Shown: piece after piece, positions 10,224 to 64,000 of the stretch
Layout: each line of letters opens with the position of its first letter
Numbering within the stretch: the first letter of the stretch is position 1
Assembly: GCA_041648455.1 (NCBI GenBank)
Contig: JBAZOZ010000002.1
Coordinates: 1,531-65,530 of the forward strand
Origin: Candidatus Pacearchaeota archaeon
Lineage (GTDB): Archaea > Nanobdellota > Nanobdellia > Pacearchaeales > GW2011-AR1
Direction: 5' to 3'
Length of the DNA: 64,000 bases
Made by a program: the position numbers and the translations under genes
The notes under the pieces: generated by a model
What the model saw: only the letters and a program-made list of their open reading frames with translations
Database searches by the model: none
What the model was told of the DNA's origin: nothing

Positions 10224-10331
10224 AGTTTGATGTGGTAAATGTGTGGACAGACTTAGATATCTTCGATTTCCAGTACATTCAATTCTCTTTAATATCGAAT
10301 TGAAGTGGCTCGAACCCTTCTCGTTCGAATA

Positions 10332-10501: not shown

Positions 10502-10564
10502 ATAAATAATTCATAGAAAAATAATATTTAAAAGTTGCTGTGGCAACTTTTAACTCTTCAAGAT

Positions 10565-10682: not shown

Positions 10683-10704
10683 AAAAATCTTGAACATTTA
10701 AAGA

Positions 10705-10950: not shown

Positions 10951-11020
10951 GTTATTAGAATTTTGAAGTTTAAAATCTTTATTGTGGTACTTTCTGATGA
11001 TTGTTTTGGCATATTTCTCT

Positions 11021-47772: not shown

Positions 47773-48923
47773 AACAAATCTATCTCGACAATGCAGCTAC
47801 GACAAAAGTTGATGGAAAAGTTTTGAAAGCCATGATTCCGTATTTTAATGAAAAATATGGAAATGCGTCTTCACAACATCAAGTCGGACAAGAAGCAAAA
47901 AATGCGTTAGAGAAAAGCAGAAAGATAATTGCAAAGTCAATAAATGCAAAAACTAATGAAATAATCTTCACGTCGGGTGGAACAGAATCAAATAATCTTG
48001 CATTAAAGGGCTTATTTTTTGCAAACAGAGAGACTAACACAGGAAAAAATCATATTATAACAACAAGAATTGAACACGATTGTATTTTAAATTCTTGCAA
48101 ATGGCTCGAAACTCAGGGAGCAAAAGTAACTTACCTTGACGTCGATAAAGAAGGTTTTGTTAATCCGAAAGATATTGAAAATGCAATCACAAACAAAACA
48201 ATTCTTGTTTCAGTTATTCATGGAAATAACGAAATTGGAACAATTCAGGATTTGGAAGCAATTGGAAAAATATGCAAAGAAAAAAAAGTATTGTTTCATA
48301 CAGATGCCTGTCAGAGTTACACAAAAACAGATTTGAATGTTAAAAAAATGAATTTAGATTTAGTTACATTGAACAGCCATAAAATTCACGGGCCGAAAGG
48401 TGTAGGTGCTTTATATATTCGAGAGGGGGTTAAGATAATTCCATTGTTCCATGGTGGAGGACACGAAAAAAAAATACGAAGCGGAACGGAAAATGTTCCT
48501 GGAATTATTGGATTTGCCGAAGCTGTTGAAACAATTGGAAAAAAAGATTTGAAAAGAATGGAAGAATTGAGAGATAAATTAATTGATAGTGTATTAAAAA
48601 TTCCCAATACAAAATTAAACGGAGCAAGAAAAAAAAGATTATGCAATAATATTAATATTTCGTTTATGAATATTGAAGGCGAAGCGATTGGCGGGTATTT
48701 GGAAAATGAAGGAATTTATACGTCGACTGGAAGCGCGTGCCAGTCACATACTTTAGAATCAAGCCATGTTTTGAAAGCCATAAATTTGAGCCCGTTAGAA
48801 GCAAATAGTTCAATAAGAATGAGTTTAAGCAAATTTACAACGGAAGAAGAAATTGATTATGTTCTTAAAGTTCTTCCAAAAGTTGTTGAAAAATTAAGGA
48901 GGCTTAGCCCGCTTGTGAATTAA
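47769..48923 (+). CDS. iscS: Cysteine desulfurase (NifS/IscS)
   Basis: NSHKIHGPKGVGALYIR (PLP-Lys), ...C...GSAC. Confidence 0.85.
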   Translation: MKQIYLDNAATTKVDGKVLKAMIPYFNEKYGNASSQHQVGQEAKNALEKSRKIIAKSINAKTNEIIFTSGGTESNNLALKGLFFANRETNTGKNHIITTRIEHDCILNSCKWLETQGAKVTYLDVDKEGFVNPKDIENAITNKTILVSVIHGNNEIGTIQDLEAIGKICKEKKVLFHTDACQSYTKTDLNVKKMNLDLVTLNSHKIHGPKGVGALYIREGVKIIPLFHGGGHEKKIRSGTENVPGIIGFAEAVETIGKKDLKRMEELRDKLIDSVLKIPNTKLNGARKKRLCNNINISFMNIEGEAIGGYLENEGIYTSTGSACQSHTLESSHVLKAINLSPLEANSSIRMSLSKFTTEEEIDYVLKVLPKVVEKLRRLSPLVN

Positions 48924-48924
48924 A

Positions 48925-49989
48925 ATGAAAAAAATAAAATTTCCTAAAGATGAACAATCTCATGATAACATAATTGAGTGGTGGTATTTTAACGGAAATT
49001 TGAAAGACAAAAAAGGGAATAAGTATGCTTTTATGAATTGTCTATTTAAAGTTGATGTAAATCGTGTAAATATTCCCTTTCTAAAAATCCCTTTTAAAAC
49101 AGCTTATTTCTCCCACTCTCTTTTATCAGATATCAAAAATAATAAATTTTATCCAAGGGTTAGCCCCTTATCAATTGTTTCTACTGATAGTTTTTCAAAA
49201 CCCTTGCTTTTTATTAATTATACTAACCCTTCTTTAGAAGGATATACTAATTACATAATTGAGAATATTGAAAAATCCAGATATCATATAAAAACTAAGG
49301 ATATAGATTTAATACTGACTTCAATAAAAAAACCATTATTAGAGGGGGGCAAGGGATTTATAAATCTCAATCCAAAAAAAACATATTATTATTCTTTAAC
49401 TAATTTACAAACTAAAGGGAGAATAAAAATCAAAAATAAATGGATAGAAATTACAGGAAAGTCATGGATGGATCATCAGTGGGCAGATGTTCCTTATAGT
49501 GAAAATGAAAACAAATGGACTTGGTTTTCAATACAATTGCATAATAATATGGAAATTGTCTGTTTTGAATATGATGATGGAAAAAATAAAACATATTTTG
49601 CTAGTATCTCTTACCCAGATAATAAACAAAAGCATTTCTCTAAAATTGAATTTAAACCTCTCGGAAAAAAATGGAAAAGTAAAAAAACCGGAACAATATA
49701 TCCTCTTTCTTGGGAAATTAAAATCCCTAAAGAAAAAATTACCTTAGAAGTTGAGCCACTAATTAATAATCAAGAGGTGAATTTTGGAACGATTAATTAT
49801 TGGGAAGGTCCATTAAATGTAAAAGGAAAAATAGGCAAGAAGAATATTAAAGGAGAAGGATTTATGGAACTGGTTGGTTATCCTTCTGATTACACTAAAA
49901 TAAAATTCTTAAGGGATGAGGCTGCTTGGGTTTTAAAGAAATCTTTATCTTTTGTTAAAAAAGAAATCAAAAAAAATATTGGATATTGA
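48925..49989 (+). CDS. AttH/CrtC-like lipocalin-fold protein (COG5621-like)
   Basis: EWWYFNGNL...G.KYAF motif. Confidence 0.4.
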   Translation: MKKIKFPKDEQSHDNIIEWWYFNGNLKDKKGNKYAFMNCLFKVDVNRVNIPFLKIPFKTAYFSHSLLSDIKNNKFYPRVSPLSIVSTDSFSKPLLFINYTNPSLEGYTNYIIENIEKSRYHIKTKDIDLILTSIKKPLLEGGKGFINLNPKKTYYYSLTNLQTKGRIKIKNKWIEITGKSWMDHQWADVPYSENENKWTWFSIQLHNNMEIVCFEYDDGKNKTYFASISYPDNKQKHFSKIEFKPLGKKWKSKKTGTIYPLSWEIKIPKEKITLEVEPLINNQEVNFGTINYWEGPLNVKGKIGKKNIKGEGFMELVGYPSDYTKIKFLRDEAAWVLKKSLSFVKKEIKKNIGY

Positions 49990-50134
49990 AATGGGAAAAA
50001 ATAAAATTAAAGACAAATTTGAGGAAATTGGATGTGAATTTAAAAATGAAACTGCATGTGATGAAGACCTTGAGGAAGAAGATGTAGATATTGATGATGC
50101 AGAATCATCCAATTACGAAGATGAAGAATAAAAA

Positions 50135-50332
50135 ATGAAAAAGATAACAGGAAAAGAAAAAATATCTGAATTAATTGGAGACAAAAGAGTTGTTGAAGTA
50201 TTATTTGAAAATGGAATTATGTGTATGGGTTGCCATGCGGCTCCATTTGAAACTTTAGAACAAGGATGCAAAGCTCATGGAATGAGTAAAAAAGAAATTG
50301 ATAAATTAATTGATAAGTTGAACAAAGAATAA
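50135..50332 (+). CDS. Small Cys-motif redox protein (DUF1858-like)
   Basis: CMGCHAAPFETLEQGCKAHG. Confidence 0.45.
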   Translation: MKKITGKEKISELIGDKRVVEVLFENGIMCMGCHAAPFETLEQGCKAHGMSKKEIDKLIDKLNKE

Positions 50333-50333
50333 A

Positions 50334-50732
50334 ATGTCGCTACAATATTCAAAAAAATTAATGAAGCATTTCAAGAATCCGAAGTTTGTCAAGAAATTGA
50401 AGAACCCCGATGCTGTTGGCGAAGTTGGAAATATAAGATGCGGCGACATAATGAGATTAGAATTGAAAATTGATCCCAAAACTCGCAAGATAAAAGATAT
50501 TGGATTTCAAACTTTTGGGTGTCCGGCGGCAGTTGCAAGTTCAGATGTTGTTTGTGAAATTGTAAAAGGAAAAACATTGAAACAAGCAGAAAAAGTGGGC
50601 AAGGATGATATTGTAAAAAAACTCGGTGGAATGCCTCCAATAAAAATTCATTGTTCTATTTTAGGTATTGAAGCATTGAGAAAAGCAATTAAGAACTATG
50701 AGGAAAAAAATAAATTGGAAGGGAAAAAGTAA
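50334..50732 (+). CDS. iscU: Fe-S cluster scaffold IscU/NifU-like
   Basis: CGDIM.L, ..FGCPAAVASS and ...H.. motifs. Confidence 0.8.
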   Translation: MSLQYSKKLMKHFKNPKFVKKLKNPDAVGEVGNIRCGDIMRLELKIDPKTRKIKDIGFQTFGCPAAVASSDVVCEIVKGKTLKQAEKVGKDDIVKKLGGMPPIKIHCSILGIEALRKAIKNYEEKNKLEGKK

Positions 50733-50747
50733 GATGAAATATAAAAG

Positions 50748-51305
50748 ATGATAAATAAAAAGGCACCGGATATTGAATTGAGAGCTTTCCATGAAGGAAA
50801 GATAAAGAAGATTGACTTATTTGATTATCGCGGAAAATGGGTTGTATTATTTTTTTATCCTGCGGATTTTTCATTTATCTGCCCGACAGAACTCAGTGAG
50901 TTGGCCGAAAATTATGAATTGTTAAAAAAAATGAATGTAGAAGTTTTATCTATAAGCACAGATACTGAATTTGCCCATAAGGCCTGGCACGAAACATCCG
51001 AGATAATAAAAAAAGTTAAATTTCCGATGCTAGCAGATCCGACAGGCAGAATCTCCAAAATTTATGGCACCTATATTGAAGAAGAAGGACTAAGTGTAAG
51101 GGCAACTTTTATTATAGATCCCGAGGGAGTTATTAAGGCTTATGAATTTCATAATAATGATATTGGTAGAAGTATTGAAGAATTGATTAGAAAAATCCAG
51201 GCCGCGCAATTTGTAAAAGATAATAAAGGATTTGTTTGTCCCATGAATTGGAAACCTGGAAAAGAAGCACTGAAGCCAGAATTAAATATTATTGAAAAGA
51301 TATAA
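50748..51305 (+). CDS. Peroxiredoxin (2-Cys Prx, AhpC/TSA family)
   Basis: FYPADFSFICPTEL. Confidence 0.85.
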   Translation: MINKKAPDIELRAFHEGKIKKIDLFDYRGKWVVLFFYPADFSFICPTELSELAENYELLKKMNVEVLSISTDTEFAHKAWHETSEIIKKVKFPMLADPTGRISKIYGTYIEEEGLSVRATFIIDPEGVIKAYEFHNNDIGRSIEELIRKIQAAQFVKDNKGFVCPMNWKPGKEALKPELNIIEKI

Positions 51306-51556
51306 TTAGAAACTGGAATATAAATAAAATTGTAAGAATAAAAATATGGCAGATAGAAAACGCAGAAGTTTATTGAAAGCAATAAGTTGGTGATTCGTTG
51401 CAGTGTTAATTACATTTGTAATAAGTTTTATTATAACTAAAGAAATCCTTATTGCAGCAACAATCGGCTTAACTGACAGCTTTATTAAGATATTTGCATA
51501 TTATTCCCATGAAAGACTTTGGGAGAAGATAAATATTTGGAGAGTTAAAAACTAAG

Positions 51557-52222
51557 ATGAAAAAAATAGGAAATTTTTTACCCCATTCAAATCAAGAAAA
51601 TTTGAAGGTGAAGAAAATTGAACTTTCAAAATTAGAATATCCCTATGATAGTCTGGAGTCATACATCGACGAGAAAACAATGGAAATTCATCACGACAAA
51701 CATCATCAAACTTATGTTGATAAATTCAATGCACTAATCGAAGCGAATAAAGAATTAGAAGGAAGAACACCCAAAGAGATAATTATGGATATTGAAGATG
51801 TTGACGAGAAAATAAGAACTGCTGTAAGAAATCATGGTGGCGGAGTTATTAATCATAATTTTCTCTGGAAAATCTTGAAAAAGAATACAGAACCTAAGGG
51901 AAATATTCTTAAGGAAATAGAAAAAGAATTTGGAAATATTGATAAATTTAAAGAAGAATTTAAAAAATCTGCCATGAGTTTATTTGGAAGTGGCTGGACT
52001 TGGCTAGTTCTTGACGACGGCAAATTAAATATCATTAACACATCAAATCAGGATTCTCCATTAAGTATGGGAATGATTCCATTATTAACAATTGATTTGT
52101 GGGAACATGCATATTATTTGAAATATCAAAATAGAAGAGCAGATTATATTGATAATTTTTTTCATGTGATTAATTGGGAGAAAGTAAATGAAATATTCTT
52201 GGAGGAAAATGTGAATGGATAA
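51557..52222 (+). CDS. sod: Fe/Mn superoxide dismutase
   Basis: HHDKHHQTYV and DLWEHAYY motifs. The first 20 codons lie in an AGGAA array, so the true start may be GTG at 51617. Confidence 0.85.
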   Translation: MKKIGNFLPHSNQENLKVKKIELSKLEYPYDSLESYIDEKTMEIHHDKHHQTYVDKFNALIEANKELEGRTPKEIIMDIEDVDEKIRTAVRNHGGGVINHNFLWKILKKNTEPKGNILKEIEKEFGNIDKFKEEFKKSAMSLFGSGWTWLVLDDGKLNIINTSNQDSPLSMGMIPLLTIDLWEHAYYLKYQNRRADYIDNFFHVINWEKVNEIFLEENVNG

Positions 52223-52739
52223 AGCGATAAAAATTCTTGTTGACGAGCATAAAAATATCTTAAAACTAGCTGATGCTCTTGAAAAAGAATGTAATAAGAT
52301 TAAATCTGGAGAAAAAGTTAATGAAGATTTCTTTAAGAAAGTTATAGATTTTATAAGGAATTATGCGGATAAATTTCACCATGCTAAAGAGGAAGATATT
52401 TTATTTAAAGAATTCTGCAAGACTGCAGAAAAAGGATGTTTGCATTGTAATCCTGTTGAACAAATGTTATATGAACATGATATTGGAAGAAAATTTGTTA
52501 GGGGAATTGAAGAAGGAATAAAAGAGAAGGATAAAAGAAAAATTGTAGAGAACTCACTTGGTTATGTCAATTTAATAAGAGAGCATATTTTCAAAGAAGA
52601 TAATATTTTGTATCCTATGGCAGAAAATTCATTTGATAAAAGAACCAAGGAAGAAATTCTAAAAAAGTTTAATAAAATAAGTAAAGATAAAAAAATTGAA
52701 GAAAGGAAATATTTTTTATTTGTGAGGGGATTAAATTGA
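52215..52739 (+). CDS. Hemerythrin-like HHE cation-binding domain protein
   Basis: H..I...A..L, FHHAKEE, YEHDIGR and REHIFKEDNILYPMAE motifs. Confidence 0.65.
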   Translation: MDKAIKILVDEHKNILKLADALEKECNKIKSGEKVNEDFFKKVIDFIRNYADKFHHAKEEDILFKEFCKTAEKGCLHCNPVEQMLYEHDIGRKFVRGIEEGIKEKDKRKIVENSLGYVNLIREHIFKEDNILYPMAENSFDKRTKEEILKKFNKISKDKKIEERKYFLFVRGLN

Positions 52740-53038: not shown

Positions 53039-53509
53039 ATGGAAAACAAATCTGTAGGATTATTAATTATTGGAATTGCAGTTGTAATGGTAATTATAGT
53101 TATTATTTTTAATTTTGCATTAAATTCTATTGTTGGAGTATCATGCAGTATGGGGTCATCATGCACGATGTATGATACAATAAAGGTTCAGACATGGATA
53201 AGTCTTGCAATTGTTGCAGTTATATTTATAATAGGTTTAATTATAATGTTCTCAAAACCAAAAGAGAAAATAGTAATTAAGACAATAAAAGAAAAGAAGA
53301 AAAAACTAAATCTTGATGGGTTGGATAATAAAGAAAAAGAAGTTGTGAAAATTCTTGAAGAAGAAAATGGAACAATATTTCAAGCAACATTAATGGAAAA
53401 GATTGGAATTGGAAAAGTTGGAATTACTCGCTTGTTAGATAAGCTTGAAGCAAAACAAATTATTGAAAGAAAACGACGTGGGATGAATAATGTTGTTGTT
53501 TTACGCTAA
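53039..53509 (+). CDS. Membrane-anchored winged-helix transcription regulator
   Basis: Two TM segments then KEKEVVKILEEENGTIFQATLMEKIGIGKVGITRLLDKLEAKQIIER. Confidence 0.5.
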   Translation: MENKSVGLLIIGIAVVMVIIVIIFNFALNSIVGVSCSMGSSCTMYDTIKVQTWISLAIVAVIFIIGLIIMFSKPKEKIVIKTIKEKKKKLNLDGLDNKEKEVVKILEEENGTIFQATLMEKIGIGKVGITRLLDKLEAKQIIERKRRGMNNVVVLR

Positions 53510-53922: not shown

Positions 53923-54351
53923 ATGAAAAGCTCAATAGTTATTTTATTAGTAATTGTAGCGATACTGGTAATTGGTGGTGTTTTTTACATTGCTATAGGT
54001 AGCAATCCTTCTTCTAAGAATATTGAAGGAACTGGCACTCAGAATTCTGGAAATGAAATAGATAGTAATACTCCAAGTGAAACTAATACTAACACTCCAA
54101 AAACATATAATACAGAGATAAAGAATTTTGCATTTAATCCTATAACTTTAACTATAAAAAAAGGAGATAGTGTTAAATGGACTAATATAGATTCTGCAAA
54201 ACATACAGTAACTTCTGATTCTGGAAATGAATTAGATTCTGAATTGCTGACGAATGGAGAAACATACTCACATACATTTAATGAAGTTGGAACCTATAAT
54301 TATCATTGTGCACCACATCCTATGATGAAAGCAAAAATAATTGTTCAATAA
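53923..54351 (+). CDS. Plastocyanin/azurin-like blue copper protein (cupredoxin), membrane anchored
   Basis: N-terminal TM; H...NYHCAPHPMMKAKIIV (Cys-X2-His-X2-3-Met type 1 Cu site). Confidence 0.7.
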   Translation: MKSSIVILLVIVAILVIGGVFYIAIGSNPSSKNIEGTGTQNSGNEIDSNTPSETNTNTPKTYNTEIKNFAFNPITLTIKKGDSVKWTNIDSAKHTVTSDSGNELDSELLTNGETYSHTFNEVGTYNYHCAPHPMMKAKIIVQ

Positions 54352-54553
54352 TTTACAGAGAAAATTATAAATCCTAAGGAAATTGTATTTGAATGATATT
54401 TGAGATACCGTTAGTAATTATCCTTGGAATCGCTACAATAGTTTCAGTTTTTATAACTGCAAGTTTTGGTATGGCAATGCATATCTTCAAAAAAGATGTT
54501 TTCAAATATCATAAACTTTTTGCATCTTTAACAATCACTCTAGCAATATAAAA

Positions 54554-54982
54554 ATGGAAAAAATATCAGAAGCGATGTTAATTGAGCATCAAAGATTGTA
54601 TAATCTCTTGGAAAGATTAGAAAAAAATTTAGATGGTAATGACAAAAATTGGAAAGAATTATTTAATGAATTTAAATGGAATTTAGAAAAACATTTTTTT
54701 GTTGAGGAGAAAGCAATATTTGACTTGTGCAATTCTGATTGTGGAGAAAGAATTCCAGAGATATTTGATTTAATGAAAGAACATGGGGAAATTATTTATT
54801 TGATGAATGAAATTGATGATGAATTAGATGATAATCTTAAAAAAAACTTGTTGGAGATTAAGAGAATGTTAATTAAACATTCTAATTCTGAAGACGAGAG
54901 TTTTTATCCATTATTAGATGAAGAATTAAGCGAAGAAAGAAAGTTAGAAATTTTATCTCGAATTAAAGAAATTGTTCATTAA
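54554..54982 (+). CDS. Hemerythrin-like domain protein
   Basis: EHQRL..LL, LEKHFFVEE and HSNSED motifs. Confidence 0.55.
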   Translation: MEKISEAMLIEHQRLYNLLERLEKNLDGNDKNWKELFNEFKWNLEKHFFVEEKAIFDLCNSDCGERIPEIFDLMKEHGEIIYLMNEIDDELDDNLKKNLLEIKRMLIKHSNSEDESFYPLLDEELSEERKLEILSRIKEIVH

Positions 54983-55382
54983 GAATTCTAAAAATATAAA
55001 TTGAAATTATTGCCGTTGTTGCCAATTGTATTAATGGGCTTATTCCAATTCCAAAAATTGTTGGCATTAATTTTGTATAGGCCCATCTTCCAAGATTAAG
55101 ATTTACTTTCTCAATTATTGATGCAGTAATTAAACCTAAGATTATAATTAAGAAATAATCATTCTTCTTTGGTTTATTAATCCAATTTATGCTTTTATTT
55201 CTTAGAGATATTATTAAGAATATTCCTAAGATTATTAACATATCTGTGAATGATGCTAAAAGTAGATGAAGAATCGGAGAAATTCCAGATTTATCAATGT
55301 ATAAAAAATAATGAGACAATTCCCAAATTAGATTTATTACTAAGATTATCGACGAGAGGATAAAAATATTCCTGATTTTCAT
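54963..55382 (-). CDS. Integral membrane protein (139 aa)
   Basis: Four predicted TM segments. Confidence 0.45.
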   Translation of the reverse strand: MKIRNIFILSSIILVINLIWELSHYFLYIDKSGISPILHLLLASFTDMLIILGIFLIISLRNKSINWINKPKKNDYFLIIILGLITASIIEKVNLNLGRWAYTKLMPTIFGIGISPLIQLATTAIISIYIFRILNEQFL

Positions 55383-55487
55383 AATTAAATTAGGATCTTC
55401 TTCTTTAAATTTTTATCTGAAACTAGTTTCTCCAAAGAGAATATATAATATCTTTTTCTTGAAATACTAATTAAATTTGGAGTTAAA

Positions 55488-56147
55488 ATGGACGAACAAA
55501 AAAACAATGCAGTAATTGTAAAGAAAACTGATTGGGAGTTTTTCCTTCAGGTAGGAATAGTTATTGTGCTCGCAGTACTGTTGTTTTATAATGTTAATAA
55601 GACAGGAAATGTTACTGGTGGAGTTATCGGAACAGTATCTGCTTCAGAAATAATTCCTAAGGGAGTTCCAGAGATTTACGGAAAAGAATTAGGAGTTAGT
55701 TACGACGGTGTTTCTACAAGTAATCCGCAATTGGCAGATACAACTATTGAAATTCTTTCTAATATTGATAGAACTGTGACCTTGACAGGAGATGATTTGC
55801 AGAGATACATTAAGATTGGAAGTATGATTGCATGTGAATATTGTTGTGGTGCAGAGACATTAGTTTTTAGCAATGGACAACCTGCATGTGGATGTGCTCA
55901 TAGTTATTCTATGAGAGGATTAGCTAAATATCTTATCAAAAACCATGGAGATGAATTTACAGATGATCAAATCCTTGAAGAGCTTGGAAAATGGAAGGTT
56001 TTATTTTTTCCAGGGGTGCATGAACAAAAAGCAGCGATATTGAAAAGTCAAGGAATTGAACTTAGTTATATCAATTTAGCAAGCAACAAATACCGTGGAA
56101 TTGAACAAGGACAAACATCTGACGGAGCAATGGTAGGTGGCTGTTAA
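55488..56147 (+). CDS. Membrane-anchored Cys-rich protein ending in MVGGC (CEYCCG...CGC motif)
   Basis: TM LQVGIVIVLAVLLFY; CEYCCGAETLVFSNGQPACGCAHS; C-terminus ...GQTSDGAMVGGC. Confidence 0.5.
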   Translation: MDEQKNNAVIVKKTDWEFFLQVGIVIVLAVLLFYNVNKTGNVTGGVIGTVSASEIIPKGVPEIYGKELGVSYDGVSTSNPQLADTTIEILSNIDRTVTLTGDDLQRYIKIGSMIACEYCCGAETLVFSNGQPACGCAHSYSMRGLAKYLIKNHGDEFTDDQILEELGKWKVLFFPGVHEQKAAILKSQGIELSYINLASNKYRGIEQGQTSDGAMVGGC

Positions 56148-56189
56148 AGTGGATTGCTATTGCACAAATGAAAACAAGGAGAGAAAACA

Positions 56190-56420
56190 ATGGATACAAA
56201 GAAATTAATTTTATGGATTGTTATTGCTATACTTGCAATTGCAATAGTTTATGTAGTGTTTTTCAAAACAAGTGGCACAGCAGCTGCAGTATCTGGTGGG
56301 AAAATTGATACAACTGGTTGGACAGAGAATGAAAAGATGAACTATGAAATGCATGGGACAATCCCTGCACGAGTTGGAAGCAGTACATCGAGCGGATCAG
56401 GTATGGTGGGAGGTTGTTAA
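56190..56420 (+). CDS. Small membrane peptide with C-terminal ...SGSGMVGGC
   Basis: AAGGAGA SD; TM ILWIVIAILAIAIVYVVFF; ends GSGMVGGC. Confidence 0.5.
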   Translation: MDTKKLILWIVIAILAIAIVYVVFFKTSGTAAAVSGGKIDTTGWTENEKMNYEMHGTIPARVGSSTSSGSGMVGGC

Positions 56421-56488
56421 TTTGAAAGATTGTTGTTCTCCCACACCTAATAACAAAGAAATGAAAGGAGGAAAAATTCATATATAAA

Positions 56489-56644
56489 ATGGACAAAAAA
56501 ATCATTTTGTGGATAATAATAGCTATCCTTGTAGTTGCAGTGATATACATAACCTTTTTTAGAGGCGGTTCAACAGGAAGTGCAATAAGTGCTGTACAAT
56601 CTGCTGGGCAAACTGCATCTAGTGGAATGGTTGGTGGCTGCTAA
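56489..56644 (+). CDS. Small membrane peptide (51 aa) with C-terminal ...SSGMVGGC (not in ORF track, below 60 aa)
   Basis: Hand translation MDKKIILWIIIAILVVAVIYITFFRGGSTGSAISAVQSAGQTASSGMVGGC*. Confidence 0.45.
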   Translation: MDKKIILWIIIAILVVAVIYITFFRGGSTGSAISAVQSAGQTASSGMVGGC

Positions 56645-56914
56645 AATATTTATTTTTTTGATTTTTTATTTTTCATAATTAGTAAAGAAATTGCTTAAAA
56701 ATTCACAATCCCACCGTTCGCTGATGCTCACTTCGGAGCAAGCTCGGGAGTATTTGTGAATTTTTTGCTTTGCACCAGCAATTTCAGTCTCCAGGAAAAA
56801 ATAGATATTTTTTCAGGGCCATTCAAAATCATAGATTTTGAAGGTTCCAAATCTGGCACAGCAAGCTGTGGGGTATTGACCCAGATTTAGAAACAAAGAA
56901 AATGCAAATATAGA

Positions 56915-57121
56915 AAACAAAATAGTTTTCTATCCCTAAAAATTGAGAAAGTCTTAAGGAAACAGGAAATTTTTAAGATGAAAAAAATAACAAATTTTTT
57001 ACCTTTTCAAATCAGGAAAAATTTAAGATGCGGAAAACAGGAATTTTCCGTCTCGTTAAAAACAGGAAATTTTTAAGATGAAAAAAATAACAAATTTTTT
57101 ACCTTTTCAAATCAGGAAAAT
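56915..57121 (+). repeat. AGGAA-core module array containing a 101-nt direct duplication (56957..57017 and 57058..57118), upstream of 57122
   Basis: aaacaggaaatttttaagatgaaaaaaataacaaattttttaccttttcaaatcaggaaaa occurs twice. Confidence 0.8.
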
Positions 57122-57574
57122 TTGAAAATGAACAAAAAAATAACGATTATAATATTAGTAATTTTATTAACTGTGTTTGTTGGAGCATATTTAATAAAAC
57201 AAAAAGATCCAAGAATCCCCATTACTATTTATAAAACCCAAAGTTGCGGATGTTGCGAAGGTTTTATATCTGAATTAACTAAAGGTGGATTTGATGTTAA
57301 AATGAATGTTGAGGATAATATAGATATAAAAGGAAAATATAACATTCCAGAAGAAATGCGAAGTTGTCATACTTCTTTTGTTAAGGGTTATTTTGTAGAA
57401 GGACATGTTCCTCTTGAAGCTATAAATAAATTAATTGAAGAATCTCCTGAAATTGATGGGATTGCATTACCTGGAATGCCTTCTGGTTCTTTGGGAATGC
57501 CAGGAATAAAAGATGGACGACTTAAAATATATTCTATCACCAATGGAACAGCTTCTATTTTTATGGAAATATGA
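57122..57574 (+). CDS. CopG/DUF411-like metal-binding protein (membrane anchored)
   Basis: N-terminal TM; CGCCEGF and CH motifs. Confidence 0.55.
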   Translation: MKMNKKITIIILVILLTVFVGAYLIKQKDPRIPITIYKTQSCGCCEGFISELTKGGFDVKMNVEDNIDIKGKYNIPEEMRSCHTSFVKGYFVEGHVPLEAINKLIEESPEIDGIALPGMPSGSLGMPGIKDGRLKIYSITNGTASIFMEI

Positions 57575-57712
57575 AAGAATTTCCTACTTTCAACATGGAA
57601 AATAAGAGATTTTCCATGCCATTCAAAACAAAAAGTTTTGAAGGAAACAGGAAGTTTTCAAAATGTGAAAAACTTCCTATTTTTCACCTTTTAAATTCAG
57701 GAAGAATTCAAA

Positions 57713-59224
57713 ATGAATGCAATTAACAATCTTTTAAAGAAAAGGTGGAATCCATTTGCTTTCAGAGTTGTTTCTCTTATTGTTTTTATCTTTATAATAA
57801 TTATTCTTTATCTTGGATCTTTGAAATTAATTTTTAATTTTAATAGTAATTCAGTTATGTTCATTTTGTGGACTTTGTGGTGGCCATTTTTGTATATTAG
57901 TTTATTATTTCTTGGGAGATTTTGGTGTGGTTTTATTTGCCCGATTGGGTTGTCAAATGAAATGGGAAATTCTATTAGAAAGACAAAAAAAGATTATCTG
58001 ATAAAATATGGATTTATTCCTTTTGTGATATTCTTTCTAATTGTGTTCTGGGAGCAGGTTTCTGGATTGTTCTCGTCGACAAAAATAACTTTAATTTTTC
58101 TGGCAACTTTTCTTATCTCCTCTTTTATTGCAGGTATTTTAATGCCTAGATGGGGATTTTGCAAACATTTTTGTCCTATTGGTTCTTTGTTTGGACCCTT
58201 TAGCAGACTTTCTTTTTTAAGTATCAGAACAAATAGAGAAATTTGTAAGTCGTGCAAAACGAAAGAATGTATTAGAGGAGGAAAAGTTGAGCCATGTCCA
58301 ATGTTTAATGATGTTCCTAATTTAAACAGCAATAAAGATTGTCTTTTATGCACTAATTGTATAAAAAATTGCCCGTATGATTCTGCTAAATTAAGTTTTG
58401 TAAAACCAGGAGAGGAATTAATTAAGAAATCAGGATTTAATCTTCCGGAATCTTTGTTTATTATAGCCTTGCTTGGATTTAGTGTTTTATTGACGACAAG
58501 AGGAACCAATATTTTTAGATTAATTGAATTTAGCGGAGTTTGGATAAGAGCGTTTGATTTTGTATTTGGAATCGGGTTCTTTATTTTGGCTTATTTTATT
58601 ATAACCTATATTTCGACTAACTTAGACAAAGGAAATAAAAATTTTAAAATCAATTTAATAAATGGAGGATATGTATTTTTACCTTTGGTTTTTTCTTTAA
58701 TGTTTTTCTTAATTGTCTTTGGATTTATAACTCCCTTAACCAATATAGATGGAAATATAATTGCTTTGAGTAAATATACTCTCTTAGGCATCGGAGGAAT
58801 TTGGGGCTGGAAACTTGCAAAAGATATTTTTGAAAAAAGAAATTTTGTTTATAGAATTTCAATAATCTTGATTATATTATTCTGGGTTTTGGCTTTAATT
58901 CCAGGTCCATTAAATATTTTTCCAGATAATACCGGAATTTATTTTGCAAAAAGAGGCGAAACAATTAATATGAGAGCGTTTAGTATGGGATTTGATCCTA
59001 CAGTAATTAAGATTGAATCCGGAGAAGGATTTGATATAAATGTGACAAACCAAGATATGGTTCATTCCTTTGTTATTAATGAATTAAATATCAGTGTTAA
59101 TATTCCTAGCGGGAAAAATAGGCTTATAAGGTTTGGTAATCTTGAAAAAGGAAAGTATGAATATTATTGTGCAATTCCAGGACATAAGGAAGCTGGAATG
59201 AAAGGAGTGTTAATTGTGGAATAA
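57713..59224 (+). CDS. Polytopic membrane protein with 4Fe-4S ferredoxin motifs (NapH/CcoG-like polyferredoxin) fused to a C-terminal cupredoxin domain
   Basis: CLLCTNCIKNCP (Cx2Cx2Cx3CP) and CKSCKTKEC. C-terminus GKYEYYCAIPGHKEAGMKGVLIV. Confidence 0.65.
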   Translation: MNAINNLLKKRWNPFAFRVVSLIVFIFIIIILYLGSLKLIFNFNSNSVMFILWTLWWPFLYISLLFLGRFWCGFICPIGLSNEMGNSIRKTKKDYLIKYGFIPFVIFFLIVFWEQVSGLFSSTKITLIFLATFLISSFIAGILMPRWGFCKHFCPIGSLFGPFSRLSFLSIRTNREICKSCKTKECIRGGKVEPCPMFNDVPNLNSNKDCLLCTNCIKNCPYDSAKLSFVKPGEELIKKSGFNLPESLFIIALLGFSVLLTTRGTNIFRLIEFSGVWIRAFDFVFGIGFFILAYFIITYISTNLDKGNKNFKINLINGGYVFLPLVFSLMFFLIVFGFITPLTNIDGNIIALSKYTLLGIGGIWGWKLAKDIFEKRNFVYRISIILIILFWVLALIPGPLNIFPDNTGIYFAKRGETINMRAFSMGFDPTVIKIESGEGFDINVTNQDMVHSFVINELNISVNIPSGKNRLIRFGNLEKGKYEYYCAIPGHKEAGMKGVLIVE

Positions 59225-59271: not shown

Positions 59272-60354
59272 ATGGATAATAAAATGTATAAAAAATATAT
59301 TCGCCAAAGATTATTTAAGTCTGATCCTGAAAGTATTCACAATTTAATAATCTATTTAGGAAGAGTTATGGCTTTCACTAAGCTCTCAAGATTATTAAGA
59401 TTTAATTTTGTTTTTAAGGATAAAAGACTGGAAAATGAAATTATGGGAATCAAATTTGAAAATCCCGTCGGACTTTCTGCTGGTTTTGATAAAAATGCGC
59501 AACTTACAGATTTTATTCCTGATTTAGGATTTGGATTTATAGAGATAGGGAGTGTTACTGCAAATTTTTGTGAAGGAAATCCAAAGCCAAGACTTCATCG
59601 GCTTGTAAAAGATAATGCAATTATTGTTCATTATGGTTTAGCAAATCAAGGTGCAGAGAAAATTTATCAAAGATTGAAATATAAATGTTTTAGAATCCCT
59701 CTTGGAATTAGTATTGCGAAAACAAATGATTCTACAATAAAAGGGGAGAAAAGTGTGGAAGATTATTTTAAGAGTTTTGAATTGTTAAAGAATATTGGAG
59801 ATTATATTACAATAAATATAAGTTGTCCTAATTCAGGAGACGGGAGAAGTTTTGAAGATCCTTTTTTACTGGAGTCCCTATTAAAAAAAATTGAAAAGGT
59901 TAGAAGGAATGAGAAGATAGTATTAAAAATTTCTCCAGATATTAATGAGGGAGATTTAAATTCTATTATTAACCTTTCAAAGCGATACAAAATAAATGGA
60001 TTTATTATTAGTAATCTATCAAAAAAAAGAGAAAATCTCAGCGAAGATGAAAATCTAAAATATGTTGGTGGAATTAGCGGAAGGCCCGTTCAATATAAAT
60101 CAGATGAGTTAATAAAGAAAGTTTATAAGAAAACAAAAGGAAAATTTGTGATTATTGGCTCTGGAGGAATATTTAGTGGAGAAGACGCCTATAGAAAAAT
60201 AAAAAACGGAGCAAGTTTAATTCAATTAATAACCGGAATGATTTATGAGGGCCCAGGAATTGTAAAAAAGATTAATCGGGAAATAGTTGAATTGCTAGAA
60301 AAAGATGGGTTTAATAATATTCAGGAAGCTATAGGAATAAATGCTCGAAACTAG
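59272..60354 (+). CDS. pyrD: Dihydroorotate dehydrogenase (quinone-type, PyrD family)
   Basis: FENPVGLSAGFDKNA, IEIGSVT, ...NISCPN and GSGGI motifs. Confidence 0.8.
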   Translation: MDNKMYKKYIRQRLFKSDPESIHNLIIYLGRVMAFTKLSRLLRFNFVFKDKRLENEIMGIKFENPVGLSAGFDKNAQLTDFIPDLGFGFIEIGSVTANFCEGNPKPRLHRLVKDNAIIVHYGLANQGAEKIYQRLKYKCFRIPLGISIAKTNDSTIKGEKSVEDYFKSFELLKNIGDYITINISCPNSGDGRSFEDPFLLESLLKKIEKVRRNEKIVLKISPDINEGDLNSIINLSKRYKINGFIISNLSKKRENLSEDENLKYVGGISGRPVQYKSDELIKKVYKKTKGKFVIIGSGGIFSGEDAYRKIKNGASLIQLITGMIYEGPGIVKKINREIVELLEKDGFNNIQEAIGINARN

Positions 60355-60614: not shown

Positions 60615-61691
60615 ATGAAGATAAAGAATATATTAAAAGATGAAAAAATATTGACAATTATAATTGCTGTTTTGGTTGTTTTATTTGCAATTTTATTATC
60701 GTTTCCAAACATGACTAGTCCTATAAAAGATATTATGAGTAAAGAAAAAATTTATTCTGTTGATATTATTAAAATTAATGGGTGTGATGATTGTTTTGAT
60801 TTAAATAGGGTATTAACTGTTGTGAAAAAAGATAATAGCATAGAGATAAAAGAAATTAAAGACTTAGATTACAAAAGCAAAGAAGCAGAATCATTAATAA
60901 AAGAATATGGAATAAAAACAACCCCTGCCCTAATAGTAAAATCAAGGGGAATAGAAAAAAGAGAATTCAACAAAGAAATATTTTCCTCAGGTAAAAATTA
61001 TCTTCTTTTCGATAAGTCAGTTCCATATTTAGATTTGTCTTCTGGAGAAATTAAAGGAAAGGTTGATTTTAAAGAGATTCAGGATAGTTCGTGTAAAGAA
61101 TGCCCAAGTTTATCCTCGCTAGAAAAACAATTAGAAGCCCTTGGTATTAAAAAGAAAAATTATGAAATAATTGATTCATCACAAGAAGAAGGAAAGAAGT
61201 TAATAAAAGATAATAACATTAGATTTTACAATAATTTAATTATAGGAAAAGAAATTAAGGCATATTGGTGGATATTTCCAAGTTTGAGTAAGGCATTGAC
61301 AGAAGAGAAGGATTATTATGTATTTTCAGAGCCGATTGTGTATCCTTATAAAGATGCAATTACGGGTATGATTAAAGGAAAAGTAGAAGTAATTTATGTT
61401 ACAGCAAATGACTGTAATGATTGTTCTAATGTTTCAGTTTTAAAAGAAGATTTTGAAAAATCCGGCGTTTATATTGCTAAAGATAAATATATTGATTACT
61501 CGTCGGGAGAAGGGAAACAGATAACTTCTAATTATAATATAAATGCTGTGCCAACAATTATACTTTCAAAAGAGATATTAGATTATCCCAGATTATCAGA
61601 AACCTTGAAAGAATTAGGGACTTTTGAAAAAGACGATTCTTTTGTTTTTAGAGAATTAAAAAAATTAAATCTAAAATATAAAGAAATATGA
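60615..61691 (+). CDS. Membrane-anchored protein with two thioredoxin-fold CxxC domains (extracytoplasmic thiol-disulfide oxidoreductase)
   Basis: N-terminal TM; INGCDDC...TTPALIV and VTANDCNDC...NAVPTIIL. Confidence 0.55.
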   Translation: MKIKNILKDEKILTIIIAVLVVLFAILLSFPNMTSPIKDIMSKEKIYSVDIIKINGCDDCFDLNRVLTVVKKDNSIEIKEIKDLDYKSKEAESLIKEYGIKTTPALIVKSRGIEKREFNKEIFSSGKNYLLFDKSVPYLDLSSGEIKGKVDFKEIQDSSCKECPSLSSLEKQLEALGIKKKNYEIIDSSQEEGKKLIKDNNIRFYNNLIIGKEIKAYWWIFPSLSKALTEEKDYYVFSEPIVYPYKDAITGMIKGKVEVIYVTANDCNDCSNVSVLKEDFEKSGVYIAKDKYIDYSSGEGKQITSNYNINAVPTIILSKEILDYPRLSETLKELGTFEKDDSFVFRELKKLNLKYKEI

Positions 61692-62131
61692 ATTTAAAAA
61701 CAAAAGCCGTGAGTTATGGAGTTTTGGCAATTGTTATAGTTTTGGGTTTGAATTTTACAATTTTATATTTATTGAATTTCCCTTCGATGGCAACTGAAAT
61801 AATTCAAAAATATTGGATTCTCATAGTTTTATTAATTGGAGGTTTTGGTTTGCAGATAGGATTATTTACTTATTTCCGAGGATTGAATGCAATAAGCTGT
61901 TCCACAACTGTTGCTTCTGGAAGTATATCCAGTGTGAGTATGATCTTGTGTTGTTCTCACTATTTACTAAATATACTTCCTTTTTTAGGAGCGGTCGCTG
62001 GAATTTCAGGATTAACCGCGTTATCAAAATATACTTTACAATTTTTAATTATCGGAATAGTTTCTAACATCTTTGGTGTGGGGGTTATTTTTTATCAATC
62101 AAATAAATTTAGGAAGTTGAGGAAATATTAA
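61688..62131 (+). CDS. Integral membrane protein (possible disulfide-bond formation partner)
   Basis: Four TM segments; CC pair (MILCCSHY). ATGA overlap with the upstream gene. Confidence 0.45.
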   Translation: MNLKTKAVSYGVLAIVIVLGLNFTILYLLNFPSMATEIIQKYWILIVLLIGGFGLQIGLFTYFRGLNAISCSTTVASGSISSVSMILCCSHYLLNILPFLGAVAGISGLTALSKYTLQFLIIGIVSNIFGVGVIFYQSNKFRKLRKY

Positions 62132-62368
62132 ATGGAAAATAAATTTTTAATTTTTGGTGTTGTTTCTTTAGTTGTCCTGTTAAGTATTGCGGTTGTTATA
62201 AAATTAAATAGAACTGGAGATGCAATCAACAACGAAGATTTAAACAAATATAGGTCTGAGAAAATTCCGCAGGAGTGCAGACTTTCACAAGGAGAAAATC
62301 TCCAATCATGGAAAGAACATTTGGGACATCATCAGGATACACTTTACTGTCTAGATTATTATAAATGA
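62132..62368 (+). CDS. Small membrane protein (78 aa)
   Basis: N-terminal TM. Confidence 0.35.
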   Translation: MENKFLIFGVVSLVVLLSIAVVIKLNRTGDAINNEDLNKYRSEKIPQECRLSQGENLQSWKEHLGHHQDTLYCLDYYK

Positions 62369-62496
62369 AAATACAAAAATTTCTAATTTTTGTCCTTCAA
62401 AAACAAGAAGTTTTAGAAGAAATAAGAAATTTTTTGTCTTTTACAAATAGGAAATTTGAAAAATAAAAATGGAAAAATTGAAAGGAGGTAAACAAC

Positions 62497-62652
62497 ATGG
62501 ATAAGACTGCTTGGATTTTGTTAATAATTTTATTAGTTGTTATTGGTGTTTTTGCAATTATCTCGTTTGGATCTGATGGGGGAGGTAGTACTGGGAGCTC
62601 AATTGCCTACTCATCTGCAAATCAGTACAGTGGGGGCGGATGTGGTAGATAA
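62497..62652 (+). CDS. Small membrane peptide (51 aa) ending ...SGGGCGR, related to the MVGGC family (not in ORF track)
   Basis: GAAAGGAGGTAAA SD; MDKTAWILLIILLVVIGVFAIISFGSDGGGSTGSSIAYSSANQYSGGGCGR*. Confidence 0.4.
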   Translation: MDKTAWILLIILLVVIGVFAIISFGSDGGGSTGSSIAYSSANQYSGGGCGR

Positions 62653-62667
62653 TTAATCTAATTTAAA

Positions 62668-63123
62668 ATGGAATTTAAATGCAATATTTGTAATAGAAAT
62701 TTTAATTCAGAAGAAAGTCTGAGACAGCATAATGAAATGAAACATCGTATTGAAGAAAAAAAGGCGAAAATAAATATGAGAAAATATATTATAATATCTT
62801 TATTTGTATTAATTGTTCTCTTTTCTATTCTTACAATTAGCTCTTATATGAAAAAACCTGGGAAATTTGATGAGTTTGCACAATGTCTGACTGAAAAAGG
62901 CGCTGTGATTTATGGGAATGATTACTGTCAATATACTCTAAAACAGTTTGGAATGTTTGGAAAATCCAAGAAATATCTTAATTATGTAAAATGTATAGAT
63001 AATGAAACATTATGCGACACTAAAGGAGTTAAAATAACTCCAACATGGGAAATTAAAGGACAGACGTATGAACAAGTTCAAAGTTTTGAAAAATTATCTG
63101 TTTTAAGCGGATGTGAAATATAA
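62668..63123 (+). CDS. C2H2 zinc-finger plus TM plus thioredoxin-like domain protein
   Basis: FKCNICNRNFNSEESLRQHNEMKH, TM, ...ITPTWEI. Confidence 0.45.
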   Translation: MEFKCNICNRNFNSEESLRQHNEMKHRIEEKKAKINMRKYIIISLFVLIVLFSILTISSYMKKPGKFDEFAQCLTEKGAVIYGNDYCQYTLKQFGMFGKSKKYLNYVKCIDNETLCDTKGVKITPTWEIKGQTYEQVQSFEKLSVLSGCEI

Positions 63124-63259: not shown

Positions 63260-63574
63260 ATGGATAAACTTTATGAAATTCATGCGGAAATGTGTAAAAT
63301 CTTCTCTAATCCAATTAGATTGGAAATCTTAAATTTATTGAGAGATAAAGAAATGTCTGTAACCGAGATTATAAATAAATCAAAATTAAGTCAAGCGAAT
63401 ATATCTCAACATTTGTCAATAATGAAATCGAGGGGGATTGTTGCAGCAAATAGAAAAGGCAAGAATATATACTATCGGATTACAAATCCAAAGATTATCA
63501 AAGCATTTGATATTATAAGAGAGGTTCTAGTTGAAAAATTAAAAAGAGATAGGAAATTGTTAATTAAATTATAA
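63260..63574 (+). CDS. ArsR/SmtB-family transcription regulator
   Basis: FSNPIRLEILNLL...MSVTEI...LSQANISQHLSIMKSRGIV. Confidence 0.75.
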   Translation: MDKLYEIHAEMCKIFSNPIRLEILNLLRDKEMSVTEIINKSKLSQANISQHLSIMKSRGIVAANRKGKNIYYRITNPKIIKAFDIIREVLVEKLKRDRKLLIKL

Positions 63575-63575
63575 A

Positions 63576-64000
63576 ATGCAAGATAATCTAACAAAATTAG
63601 ATAATGTAACAAAAATATTGTTGATTGTGTTAGTTGTAGCTATAACTTACTTTTTTGTATTTTTAATAATGGGTTCTTTTTTTATTAAACAACCCACATC
63701 TATGATGGAGGTGATGAATCAAACGATATATGGAAGCAATAGGACAAGCATACTTATTTTTTCATTGATTATTGCTTTATCTATTGGAATTATTTTTTCA
63801 TTTTACTTATCTAAAATTCAAACAAAAGATAAAGAGTATCATATCATTAAAAAAGCCTTATCAAAAGATGAAAGAACAATCTTAGACGAAATAAAAAAAG
63901 CCGGCGAGGTAACACAAGATTCATTAAGATTTAGATTAAATTGGAGTAAAGCAAAGATTTCAACTATTCTAACCAATCTTGATAAAATGAGTCTAATTCA
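63576..64000 (+). CDS. Membrane-anchored winged-helix regulator, 3'-truncated by window edge (same architecture as 53039..53509)
   Basis: ATG 63576, two TM segments, then DERTILDEIKKAGEVTQDSLRFRLNWSKAKISTILTNLDKM. Confidence 0.45.
   Translation, partial: MQDNLTKLDNVTKILLIVLVVAITYFFVFLIMGSFFIKQPTSMMEVMNQTIYGSNRTSILIFSLIIALSIGIIFSFYLSKIQTKDKEYHIIKKALSKDERTILDEIKKAGEVTQDSLRFRLNWSKAKISTILTNLDKMSLI

Follow-up and report, generated by a model that had tools for sequence, protein, structure and literature searches.

A membrane polyferredoxin fused to a type-1 copper cupredoxin within a copper-gene cluster of a Candidatus Pacearchaeota archaeon

What use could a tiny DPANN archaeon of symbiotic type, without a respiratory chain, make of a membrane iron–sulfur protein that ends in a blue-copper domain? 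The question is raised by a 64,000-nt stretch of contig JBAZOZ010000002.1 from a Candidatus Pacearchaeota archaeon (assembly GCA_041648455.1, positions 1,531 to 65,530 of the forward strand; ~30 % GC), hereafter the window, in which a single gene at 57713-59224 joins a membrane polyferredoxin to a cupredoxin. An initial annotation, made from the letters alone, had placed this fusion in a copper-handling cluster together with a stand-alone plastocyanin-like protein and a CxCC DUF411/CopG-like protein. The three open reading frames (53923-54351, 57122-57574 and 57713-59224) are all found on the + strand. One protein encoded in the window shares 100 % identity with a protein from a Candidatus Pacearchaeota metagenome-assembled genome, which identifies the organism as a DPANN archaeon. 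The fusion is a genuine protein of a restricted group of archaea and its genes of copper handling are conserved companions; tentatively, and at a little under an even chance, we favour the reading that it would let electrons out of the cell to extracellular copper centres.

Architecture, kinship and distribution of the fusion

57713..59224, + strand: polyferredoxin-cupredoxin fusion gene, 503 aa (open reading frame with Pfam and NCBIfam domains)
57713..58903, + strand: membrane polyferredoxin domain, residues 1-397 (9 predicted transmembrane helices, invariant columns, AlphaFold2 model)
58907..59221, + strand: type-1 copper cupredoxin domain, residues 399-503, predicted extracytoplasmic (ligands H451, C486, H491, M496)

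The union of a membrane domain carrying 4Fe-4S motifs with a C-terminal cupredoxin, as initially annotated, is borne out by Pfam matches to Fer4_5 (residues 51-92, E 4e-9), Cupredoxin_1 (residues 399-502, E 1.3e-13) and, at the C-terminus, Copper-bind (E 1.8e-6). Both motifs quoted at the time, CLLCTNCIKNCP and YEYYCAIPGHKEAGMKG, are present in the protein. The NCBIfam NapH/MauN subfamily model TIGR02163 matches residues 62-226 (E 4e-14) under the family cut-off, with 52.7 bits against 213.05, and the NapH equivalog reaches 45.6 against 234. Two features of the NapH/MauN type are nonetheless found, namely paired CX3CP motifs after transmembrane (TM) helices and paired four-Cys motifs. The first CX3CP (C72/C76/P77) is part of a TM2 motif, W53xxW56W57P...GRxWC72GFxC76P, the second is C150/C154/P155, and the iron–sulfur motifs are formed by C178/C181/C186/C195 and C210/C213/C216/C220. 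All 16 Cys, including the CX3CP pairs and the eight iron–sulfur Cys, are invariant in 30 aligned homologs reaching down to 41 % identity, and the His-Cys-His-Met set of H451, C486, H491 and M496 is kept in 30/30. The C-terminal domain has the Greek-key beta-sandwich of cupredoxins.

A CuA, NosZ or Cox2 identity was rejected for the fusion: its ligand loop holds a single Cys, which excludes a CuA site, and the scores lie far under the cut-offs. Weak NosZ and CoxB matches of the C-terminal domain were obtained with NCBIfam, and the Joint Genome Institute (JGI) labels one homolog Cox2. Such Cox2-like labels by automated pipelines, together with weak NosZ scores, could mislead metabolic reconstructions; the "nosZ-like" cupredoxins reported from DPANN archaea are distinct from the fusion and do possess a CuA site (PMC10936187).

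Orientation was approached with an AlphaFold2 (AF2) model (predicted local distance difference test, pLDDT, 77; predicted template-modelling score, pTM, 0.80), in which nine TM helices are present, TM4 and TM5 flanking a ferredoxin-like domain and TM9 being followed by the cupredoxin; a simple hydropathy scan overlooked the weak TM8. Across the family, lysine and arginine tally 14.9 in the predicted inside loops versus 3.4 outside, and this positive-inside distribution settles the orientation, so that the iron–sulfur sites are predicted to be cytoplasmic and the type-1 copper site extracytoplasmic. The side faced by the cupredoxin, a check that the initial annotation had called for, is therefore predicted to be the outer one. 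The cupredoxin itself is acidic, with a net charge of -5.7.

The initial annotation had also named two ways in which it could fail, a C-terminal region that does not match cupredoxin models and a frameshift that joins two genes. The first is answered by the matches above. As for the second, a database search retrieved ~50 full-length homolog clusters (41-93 % identity), all with the identical two-domain layout, and among 52 non-redundant loci every one of the 38 with the 3' end of the gene on the contig keeps the cupredoxin (38/38); a frameshift or gene-joining artefact is therefore rejected. Where the source names the organisms of the homolog clusters, they are Nanoarchaeota, Nanoarchaeia or Woesearchaeota. 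A profile search run exhaustively over 1.84 billion representatives gave, among the matches listed, only two 50 %-identity clusters aligned end to end in a single stretch, the other listed matches being contig-end fragments, cupredoxin-less polyferredoxins or multi-cupredoxin proteins, and the full-length gene occurs in only 9 of 185,579 species-level genomes. The fusion architecture is confined to DPANN archaea of the Woese-, Pace- and Nanoarchaeota type. A search of the accessible literature found no published description of a polyferredoxin-cupredoxin fusion. The pairing of membrane polyferredoxins with cupredoxin partners was already known for separate proteins; what is new here is their covalent fusion.

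The closest relative of the membrane half is an unfused Woesearchaeota paralog (residues 51-398, E 1e-50, hhalign), whose gene is followed by that of a two-domain multicopper oxidase (MCO) of the copper-resistance type; this pair is a split counterpart of the fusion. FtrD matches with 99.1 % and E 1.1e-18 (hhalign), the alignment with Methylobacterium FtrD being limited to residues 47-243, E. coli YccM of the CcoG type with 98.3 % and E 2.3e-14 (residues 58-256), and NapH with E 3e-13. The TM2 motif WxxWWP...GRxWCGFxCP is present in unfused bacterial polyferredoxins of Ftr clusters, identified as FtrD because they stand beside P19, FtrB and FTR1, whereas neither NapH nor YccM of E. coli has it. 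By sequence, the membrane half is thus closest to the FtrD clade and not specifically to NapH or CcoG: the initial assignment to a NapH/CcoG type stands for the polyferredoxin superfamily and falls for the particular kinship.

With NapH, MauN and NosR, the core of the fusion shares the Fer4_5 domain, the CX3CP motifs and the double-cluster arrangement, and differs from NapH by five extra TM helices (nine versus four) and by its covalent cupredoxin. The window and the related loci hold no nap or mau genes, and NapG, NosZ and an FMN-binding domain are lacking. The pairing of polyferredoxins with partners of cupredoxin fold recurs: NosR acts in support of NosZ, a CuA/CuZ enzyme, and the amicyanin gene cluster includes mauN. 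On the cupredoxin side, the closest solved sequence relatives are electron-transfer type-1 copper domains tethered to nitrite reductases (2dv6, 6tfd), whose ligand loop is nearly the same, yyCS[IL]PGHrqAGMqG, and which act as a built-in module for electron transfer. In these proteins the catalytic copper enzyme fed by the cupredoxin is part of the same polypeptide, whereas the fusion carries a membrane iron–sulfur protein and no catalytic copper domain. By fold, the cupredoxin is closest to 4hcf, nitrosocyanin and Brucella FtrB.

The fusion bears on how polyferredoxins of the NapH, NosR, CcoG and FtrD types communicate with copper proteins across the membrane, and structure comparisons found no solved structure for any of these types. 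Since nature has here linked a polyferredoxin covalently to a canonical blue-copper domain, the fusion offers Rosetta-stone evidence that both halves act together directly. As a single chain, it would also lend itself to spectroscopy, redox titration and cryo-electron microscopy.

Further arrangements of the polyferredoxin clade are seen in loci L019 (9659-13348), L021, L024 (9486-12886), L025 and L027 (~8969-11083). Loci of this clade from archaeal metagenome-assembled genomes have the polyferredoxin followed by a two-domain MCO, and in Solirubrobacterales an FTR1 permease is apparently fused to the polyferredoxin in a 704-aa open reading frame.

Copper genes in the neighbourhood

57122..57574, + strand: CopG/DUF411 protein, membrane-anchored, with a CxCC copper-cluster motif (150 aa, PF04214)
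53923..54351, + strand: stand-alone membrane-anchored amicyanin-like cupredoxin (142 aa, PF00127; not conserved nearby, 2/26)

The CxCC protein at 57122-57574 was rightly taken for a member of DUF411/CopG. It matches DUF411 (PF04214) at E 5e-23, with 80.9 bits versus a cut-off of 27, and the CopG structure 6wis at E 3e-21, with conservation of the CxCC (C42-x-C44-C45, CGCC), SCHT, EGHVP and PGMPxGSxGM motifs. By analogy with that structure, it would hold a Cys-bridged tetranuclear copper cluster in a thioredoxin-like fold. Its true start is possibly ATG 57128 and not TTG 57122. The window protein belongs to the same family as CopG 6wis, but it is archaeal, anchored by an N-terminal helix and set in an operon-like arrangement with the polyferredoxin-cupredoxin. 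The linkage described for bacterial CopG involves copA, cusCBA and cutO/cueO, and no polyferredoxin-cupredoxin partner is mentioned (PMC7558416).

Neighbourhood counts were taken from the 52 non-redundant fusion loci, the denominators being the loci evaluable for each feature. A DUF411/CopG or PCYCGC gene stands directly upstream of the fusion gene on the same strand in 34/42 loci, frequently overlapping its start codon (stop/start overlap), and is found anywhere in the locus in 33/37. PCYCGC (PF13798) proteins take the CopG position, overlapping the fusion start, in L001 (5579-6004), L006 (5574-5999), L007 (4553-5023) and L010 (9584-9991), which implies that in copper handling they stand in functionally for CopG; by replacing CopG at the same operon position, this uncharacterised family becomes tied to copper. 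A P1B ATPase of the CopA type is present in 13/26 loci, an MCO in 2/26 and a stand-alone cupredoxin in 2/26. With the CopG/PCYCGC and CopA linkage, and an upstream module shared by the DUF411 and fusion genes (see below), the genomic link of the fusion to copper is robust. The copper-redox or electron-transfer module initially proposed, for copper handling or as an extracytoplasmic redox chain, is supported by this linkage as well as by the domains and the predicted topology.

The stand-alone neighbour at 53923-54351 had been called plastocyanin-like and part of the cluster. Its identity holds, with a Copper-bind (PF00127) match at E 1.4e-14 (54.7 bits versus a cut-off of 21.2) and ligands read from the sequence as H94, C129, H132 and M135 (Cys-X2-His-X2-Met); its standing as a conserved member does not, given the 2/26 count. 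Amicyanins match it at E 1e-12 to 1e-13 and the amicyanin equivalog TIGR02657 reaches 64 bits versus a cut-off of 110.2, so its sequence describes it as amicyanin-like and not as an amicyanin ortholog. Like CopG and each of the MVGGC proteins presented below, it has an N-terminal helix as anchor, with basic residues ahead of it; all of them are therefore predicted to face outward.

Kinship with FtrD could suggest that the fusion is a component of Ftr-type ferrous iron uptake, FtrD being joined to FtrB. Such a role is extremely improbable, and we reject it: P19/FtrA and the FTR1 permease are absent from all 26 evaluable loci (0/26 each) and from the window, and FtrB lacks the Cys-His-Met site that is invariant in the fusion. 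In FtrABCD, FtrD and FtrB are separate proteins encoded alongside P19/FtrA and FTR1, whereas the fusion is one polypeptide, polyferredoxin then cupredoxin, in a context of copper genes and a dihydroorotate dehydrogenase, not of iron genes. FtrB is Cys-less (the Methylobacterium protein reads ...DDFHPE...) and the fusion cupredoxin has a complete type-1 His-Cys-His-Met site. More generally, the Cupredoxin_1 fold is common to the fusion and to FtrB/EfeO-type (Cup-II) proteins, and the Cys-less Asp/His metal site of the latter is not found in the fusion. No BLAST cross-match between the fusion cupredoxin and FtrB was obtained at 1e-4.

A second known system, CcoG, offers a reading without transmembrane electron transfer. 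The CX3CP motifs and iron–sulfur clusters would reduce Cu(II) to Cu(I) in the cytoplasm and feed CopA, and the cupredoxin would be an accessory copper binder or sensor. The resemblance to CcoG, FixG and YccM comprises a polytopic polyferredoxin with CX3CP motifs and two four-Cys cluster motifs, whose core aligns with YccM (98.3 %, E 2e-14), an extracytoplasmic C-terminal beta-sandwich after the last TM helix, and a genetic association with a copper P1B-ATPase and copper handling, CopA being found in half of the evaluable fusion loci (13/26). The shared Cys motifs, two [4Fe-4S] clusters, periplasmic beta-sandwich and linkage to a copper P-type ATPase are described for CcoG, which reduces Cu(II) via its two [4Fe-4S] clusters (PMC7558416). 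CcoG has, however, ~5 TM helices and an Ig-like external domain, as opposed to nine TM helices and a type-1 copper cupredoxin, and no CcoG/FixG profile or FixG_C match was found on the fusion at E <= 0.1 in Pfam or NCBIfam. The cbb3 oxidase genes are absent around the fusion, in an organism without respiratory oxidases. A fully conserved His-Cys-His-Met redox site exceeds the needs of a binding module, the tightest linkage is with extracytoplasmic CopG/PCYCGC and not with CopA, and the dehydrogenase and MCO partners would be left unexplained. We consider a cytoplasmic cupric reductase quite improbable.

A scan with PADLOC for anti-phage defence gave no match, and a defence role of the cluster was rejected on this basis. 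Just upstream of the island, 47769-52739 (+) encodes a cysteine desulfurase, a DUF1858 protein, NifU, a peroxiredoxin, a Fe/Mn superoxide dismutase, a hemerythrin-domain protein and a cupin; L004 carries a similar run of redox and iron–sulfur maintenance genes.

Direction of electron flow and the adjacent dihydroorotate dehydrogenase

59272..60354, + strand: class-2-type dihydroorotate dehydrogenase (DHODH), candidate cytoplasmic electron donor, 47 nt downstream of the fusion gene

Conserved partners of the fusion go beyond those of the initial annotation and comprise this downstream DHODH, three MVGGC-tail genes inside the annotated interval and a DUF7343 membrane regulator. The DHODH scores 330.7 bits with TIGR01036 (cut-off 200) and 374.9 with NF003652 (cut-off 267). 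Its best relatives in the Protein Data Bank are the mitochondrial quinone-dependent DHODHs (E 1e-64), and the alignment with 4ori starts at residue 2, so that the N-terminal quinone-tunnel domain is included. In 12/45 evaluable loci, including the window, a DHODH gene is located no more than 1.2 kb from the fusion gene, with all identity tiers represented, and the order DUF411-DHODH-fusion is seen in L127 and L132. The link extends to four unfused homologs that keep the TM2 motif and in which an external His/Met-rich tail replaces the cupredoxin, DHODH following at 4-40 nt.

The polyferredoxin-linked DHODHs, by their sequences, appear to form an atypical subfamily with a class-2 scaffold and N-terminal domain. 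All eight examined (window, L003, L010, L012, L031, L037, L038 and L047) read N[IV]SCPN where the mitochondrial enzymes read NVSSPN. The Cys occupies the position of the class-2 catalytic Ser base; in this the linked enzymes depart from the Ser-base definition of that class. As a separate observation, unfused archaeal polyferredoxins of 550-577 aa, each directly followed by DHODH, occur in L031 (6143-7831), L037 (3175-4887), L038 (809-2539) and L047 (9668-11323); members of this subfamily start with a signal peptide, their external N-terminal stretch is rich in His, Met and Asp, and an AGH[IL]AHNLFH segment is conserved among them.

How would such an enzyme be re-oxidised in archaea without respiratory chains, and could copper be the sink? 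Woesearchaeota reportedly lack electron-transport complexes I-IV (PMC8421398), and an oxygen reductase is encoded in 0/81 DPANN single-cell genomes (PMC7507113). A membrane-type DHODH has therefore no obvious acceptor in this lineage, and the polyferredoxin encoded beside it becomes a candidate.

From these elements we infer that electrons would cross the membrane outward, from DHODH through iron–sulfur clusters and blue copper to extracellular copper centres. The fusion would be a single-polypeptide transmembrane conduit, composed of a polyferredoxin of the FtrD/NapH superfamily and an outward type-1 copper cupredoxin. A cytoplasmic reductant, for which the DHODH is the best candidate, would load the iron–sulfur clusters; canonical DHODH relatives donate to membrane quinone, and a scavenged quinone may or may not be an intermediate. 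Electrons would then traverse the membrane, possibly via the invariant Trp/Tyr ladder of TM2, arrive at the external type-1 copper site and be discharged onto extracellular copper centres, in the first place the copper held by CopG, or by PCYCGC proteins in relatives and an MCO in the sister clade. Cu(II) would be reduced to Cu(I) and the Cys–Cu cluster kept reduced. Around this outlet, CopG, the MVGGC and thioredoxin-like proteins and DUF7343, with CopA in relatives, may ensure copper supply, buffering and sensing, surface thiols being kept reduced.

Outward flow is favoured, besides the adjacency of a dehydrogenase in need of an acceptor, because the path is energetically downhill: electrons would pass from dihydroorotate or low-potential iron–sulfur clusters to high-potential type-1 copper, aided by the membrane potential. 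NosR and NapH, which supply periplasmic enzymes, argue in the same direction, as do the DsbD-type, thioredoxin-like and CcmH-like genes of the island, whose families we take to deliver reducing power to the cell surface. CcoG provides a biochemical precedent (PMC7558416).

Several points weigh against this outward outlet. The membrane half is closest to FtrD, whose usual model has electrons going inward from the cupredoxin. No invariant His is found within the TM helices in the 30-sequence alignment, and no intramembrane redox cofactor is evident. The 64-kb window contains neither CopA nor an MCO, and no terminal acceptor beyond copper was identified. DHODH linkage concerns only about one quarter of the evaluable loci and may reflect co-regulation and not electron transfer. 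Finally, the activity proposed for CopG is the oxidation of Cu(I) and not the receipt of electrons (PMC7558416).

The FtrD and CopG arguments come together in the opposite scheme, an anaerobic cuprous oxidase. The external type-1 copper would oxidise Cu(I), exported by CopA or held by CopG, to the less toxic Cu(II), and electrons would flow inward with the polyferredoxin as sink, in a fused, copper-specific analogue of FtrB/FtrD. Both the TM2 signature and the best profile match are those of FtrD, whose cupredoxin partner FtrB is proposed to oxidise Fe(II), and CopA is nearby in 13/26 loci; CopG, a proposed Cu(I) oxidant, acts anaerobically, where O2-dependent MCOs cannot (PMC7558416). However, the sink model of FtrD is itself unproven, a cytoplasmic oxidant is not evident in an organism without a respiratory chain, and the adjacent electron-donating DHODH fits outward flow better. 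Transfer from a high-potential type-1 copper to a ferredoxin-type [4Fe-4S] cluster, against the membrane potential, would moreover be uphill. We regard an inward-directed oxidase as the main rival, and as unlikely.

Electrons could also leave through the blue copper without copper being their target. In such a general outlet, serving oxidant defence or transfer to a host, they would reach either the host surface or O2, the latter by way of an MCO or of the amicyanin-like protein that stands alone, and the copper genes would merely metallate the cupredoxin. Genes for superoxide dismutase, peroxiredoxin, hemerythrin and iron–sulfur assembly adjoin the island, MCO genes follow the closest unfused paralogs, and P1B ATPases are able to supply extracytoplasmic cuproproteins with copper. 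CopG has likewise been proposed to pass copper to cuproproteins (review, PMC7558416). The scarcity of the candidate terminal partners, an MCO and a stand-alone cupredoxin each being present in 2/26 fusion loci, and a window without MCO make this use of the fusion very improbable.

Returning to discharge onto extracellular copper, a more specific version can be formulated, which we hold as possible and rather doubtful. The fusion would be a dedicated heme-free, possibly quinone-free acceptor for a variant class-2 DHODH in DPANN archaea without quinone-based respiration, so that pyrimidine synthesis would be driven by outflow to extracellular copper, namely the Cys–Cu cluster of CopG/PCYCGC or an MCO. 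CopG, fusion and DHODH would then form a minimal three-gene outlet, and the MVGGC proteins a new class of surface thiol/copper relay. As in the analogous series NosR, CuA and CuZ, electrons would pass from polyferredoxin to cupredoxin to a tetranuclear copper cluster. The DHODH link is a hypothesis that would be new if true.

Other genes and sequence elements of the cluster

55488..56147, + strand: MVGGC-tail Cys-rich membrane-anchored protein (219 aa, CEYCCG...ACGCAH core)
56190..56420, + strand: small single-TM protein with a GMVGGC end (76 aa)
56489..56644, + strand: second small single-TM protein with a GMVGGC end (51 aa, under the default open-reading-frame cut-off; read from the sequence)
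53039..53509, + strand: membrane-tethered DUF7343 regulator (winged helix; Cys pair in the external loop; PF24034, E 1.7e-9)
56907..57130, + strand: tandemly duplicated ~100-124-nt upstream module of the DUF411 gene (repeat family D1, alignment; pseudo-start ATG within the duplication)
57592..57715, + strand: third module copy, 70 % identity, ahead of the fusion gene (repeat family D1, alignment)
60615..61691, + strand: membrane-anchored protein with repeated thioredoxin-like domains (CxxC x3; weak thioredoxin Pfam matches; syntenic 7/26)
62668..63123, + strand: protein with a C2H2 zinc finger, a TM helix and an external thioredoxin-like domain (syntenic 8/26)
54963..55382, - strand: 139-aa polytopic membrane protein, whose homologs in L004 and L010 adjoin the MVGGC pair (no family match)

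For the MVGGC tail, 16 occurrences were counted in 164 kb of fusion loci versus none among the 11,252 open reading frames of 1.04 Mb of control loci, and a Cys-rich protein with this tail is present in 18/26 fusion loci. The large MVGGC protein belongs to two subfamilies, one with at least 1,934 clusters and the other with at least 529, all from DPANN archaea and all labelled "hypothetical"; in both subfamilies the core CE[FY]CCG...CGCxH is invariant. The family has no Pfam, NCBIfam or PADLOC match, and no mention of the motif was found in a literature search. This brings to light a DPANN family which is very large and unannotated and whose C-terminal MVGGC is invariant.

The DUF7343 membrane-tethered helix-turn-helix protein is found in 16/26 fusion loci, with conserved architecture and Cys pair, which suggests, from the sequences, a sensor tethered to the membrane and responsive to metal or to the redox state outside the cytoplasm. 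A second regulator of this family (63576-64000, +) runs off the window end after an ArsR-family gene (63260-63574). Both are laid out as TM1, external loop, TM2 and cytoplasmic winged helix; the loop Cys pair is present in most homologs, often with Met or Pro close by. As to the repeat family D1, it looks like a shared cassette of promoter, operator and ribosome-binding site for the DUF411 and fusion genes.

The downstream block 60615-63123 (+) also encodes a 147-aa membrane protein with a CC motif and a 78-aa protein with a WKEHxxHH motif. The block, whose synteny extends to L004, L007 and L010 and to several loci from metagenomes, may constitute an extracytoplasmic thiol-redox system. On the opposite strand, the gene of the polytopic membrane protein at 54963-55382 (-) shares 20 nt with the 3' end of the hemerythrin gene (54554-54982). 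More distant fusion loci hold a recurrent small anchored family without Pfam match, which ends in ...RV[FY][ESQ]W[ERKT] and has a conserved L[ST]AP.L.GHH (L003 5519-5995, L005 4333-5247, L011 8623-9096 and L016 7569-8006), with fusion to a membrane domain in L005.

Within the 470-nt non-coding spacer 56645-57121, a long and unique hairpin with a comparatively G+C-rich interior, AATTCACAA...TTGTGAATT, is located at 56700-56762, and the region 56690-56900 folds better than shuffled controls (z = -3.75). An Rfam search of the spacer returned nothing credible, and a non-coding RNA was rejected for want of such a match. A palindrome, TTCAAAA-N7-TTTTGAA with one mismatch allowed, has six copies in the window versus ~1 expected, mostly intergenic (positions 1175, 24642, 24666, 29241, 56822 and 57622). 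With four of the six elsewhere in the window, a cluster-specific operator was rejected, and the palindrome is probably a genome-wide regulatory or promoter-associated motif. Far from the cluster, a tRNA match at 10332-10501 (-) spans 170 nt and was missed by ARAGORN, implying an intron-containing tRNA, which fits the archaeal origin of the window.

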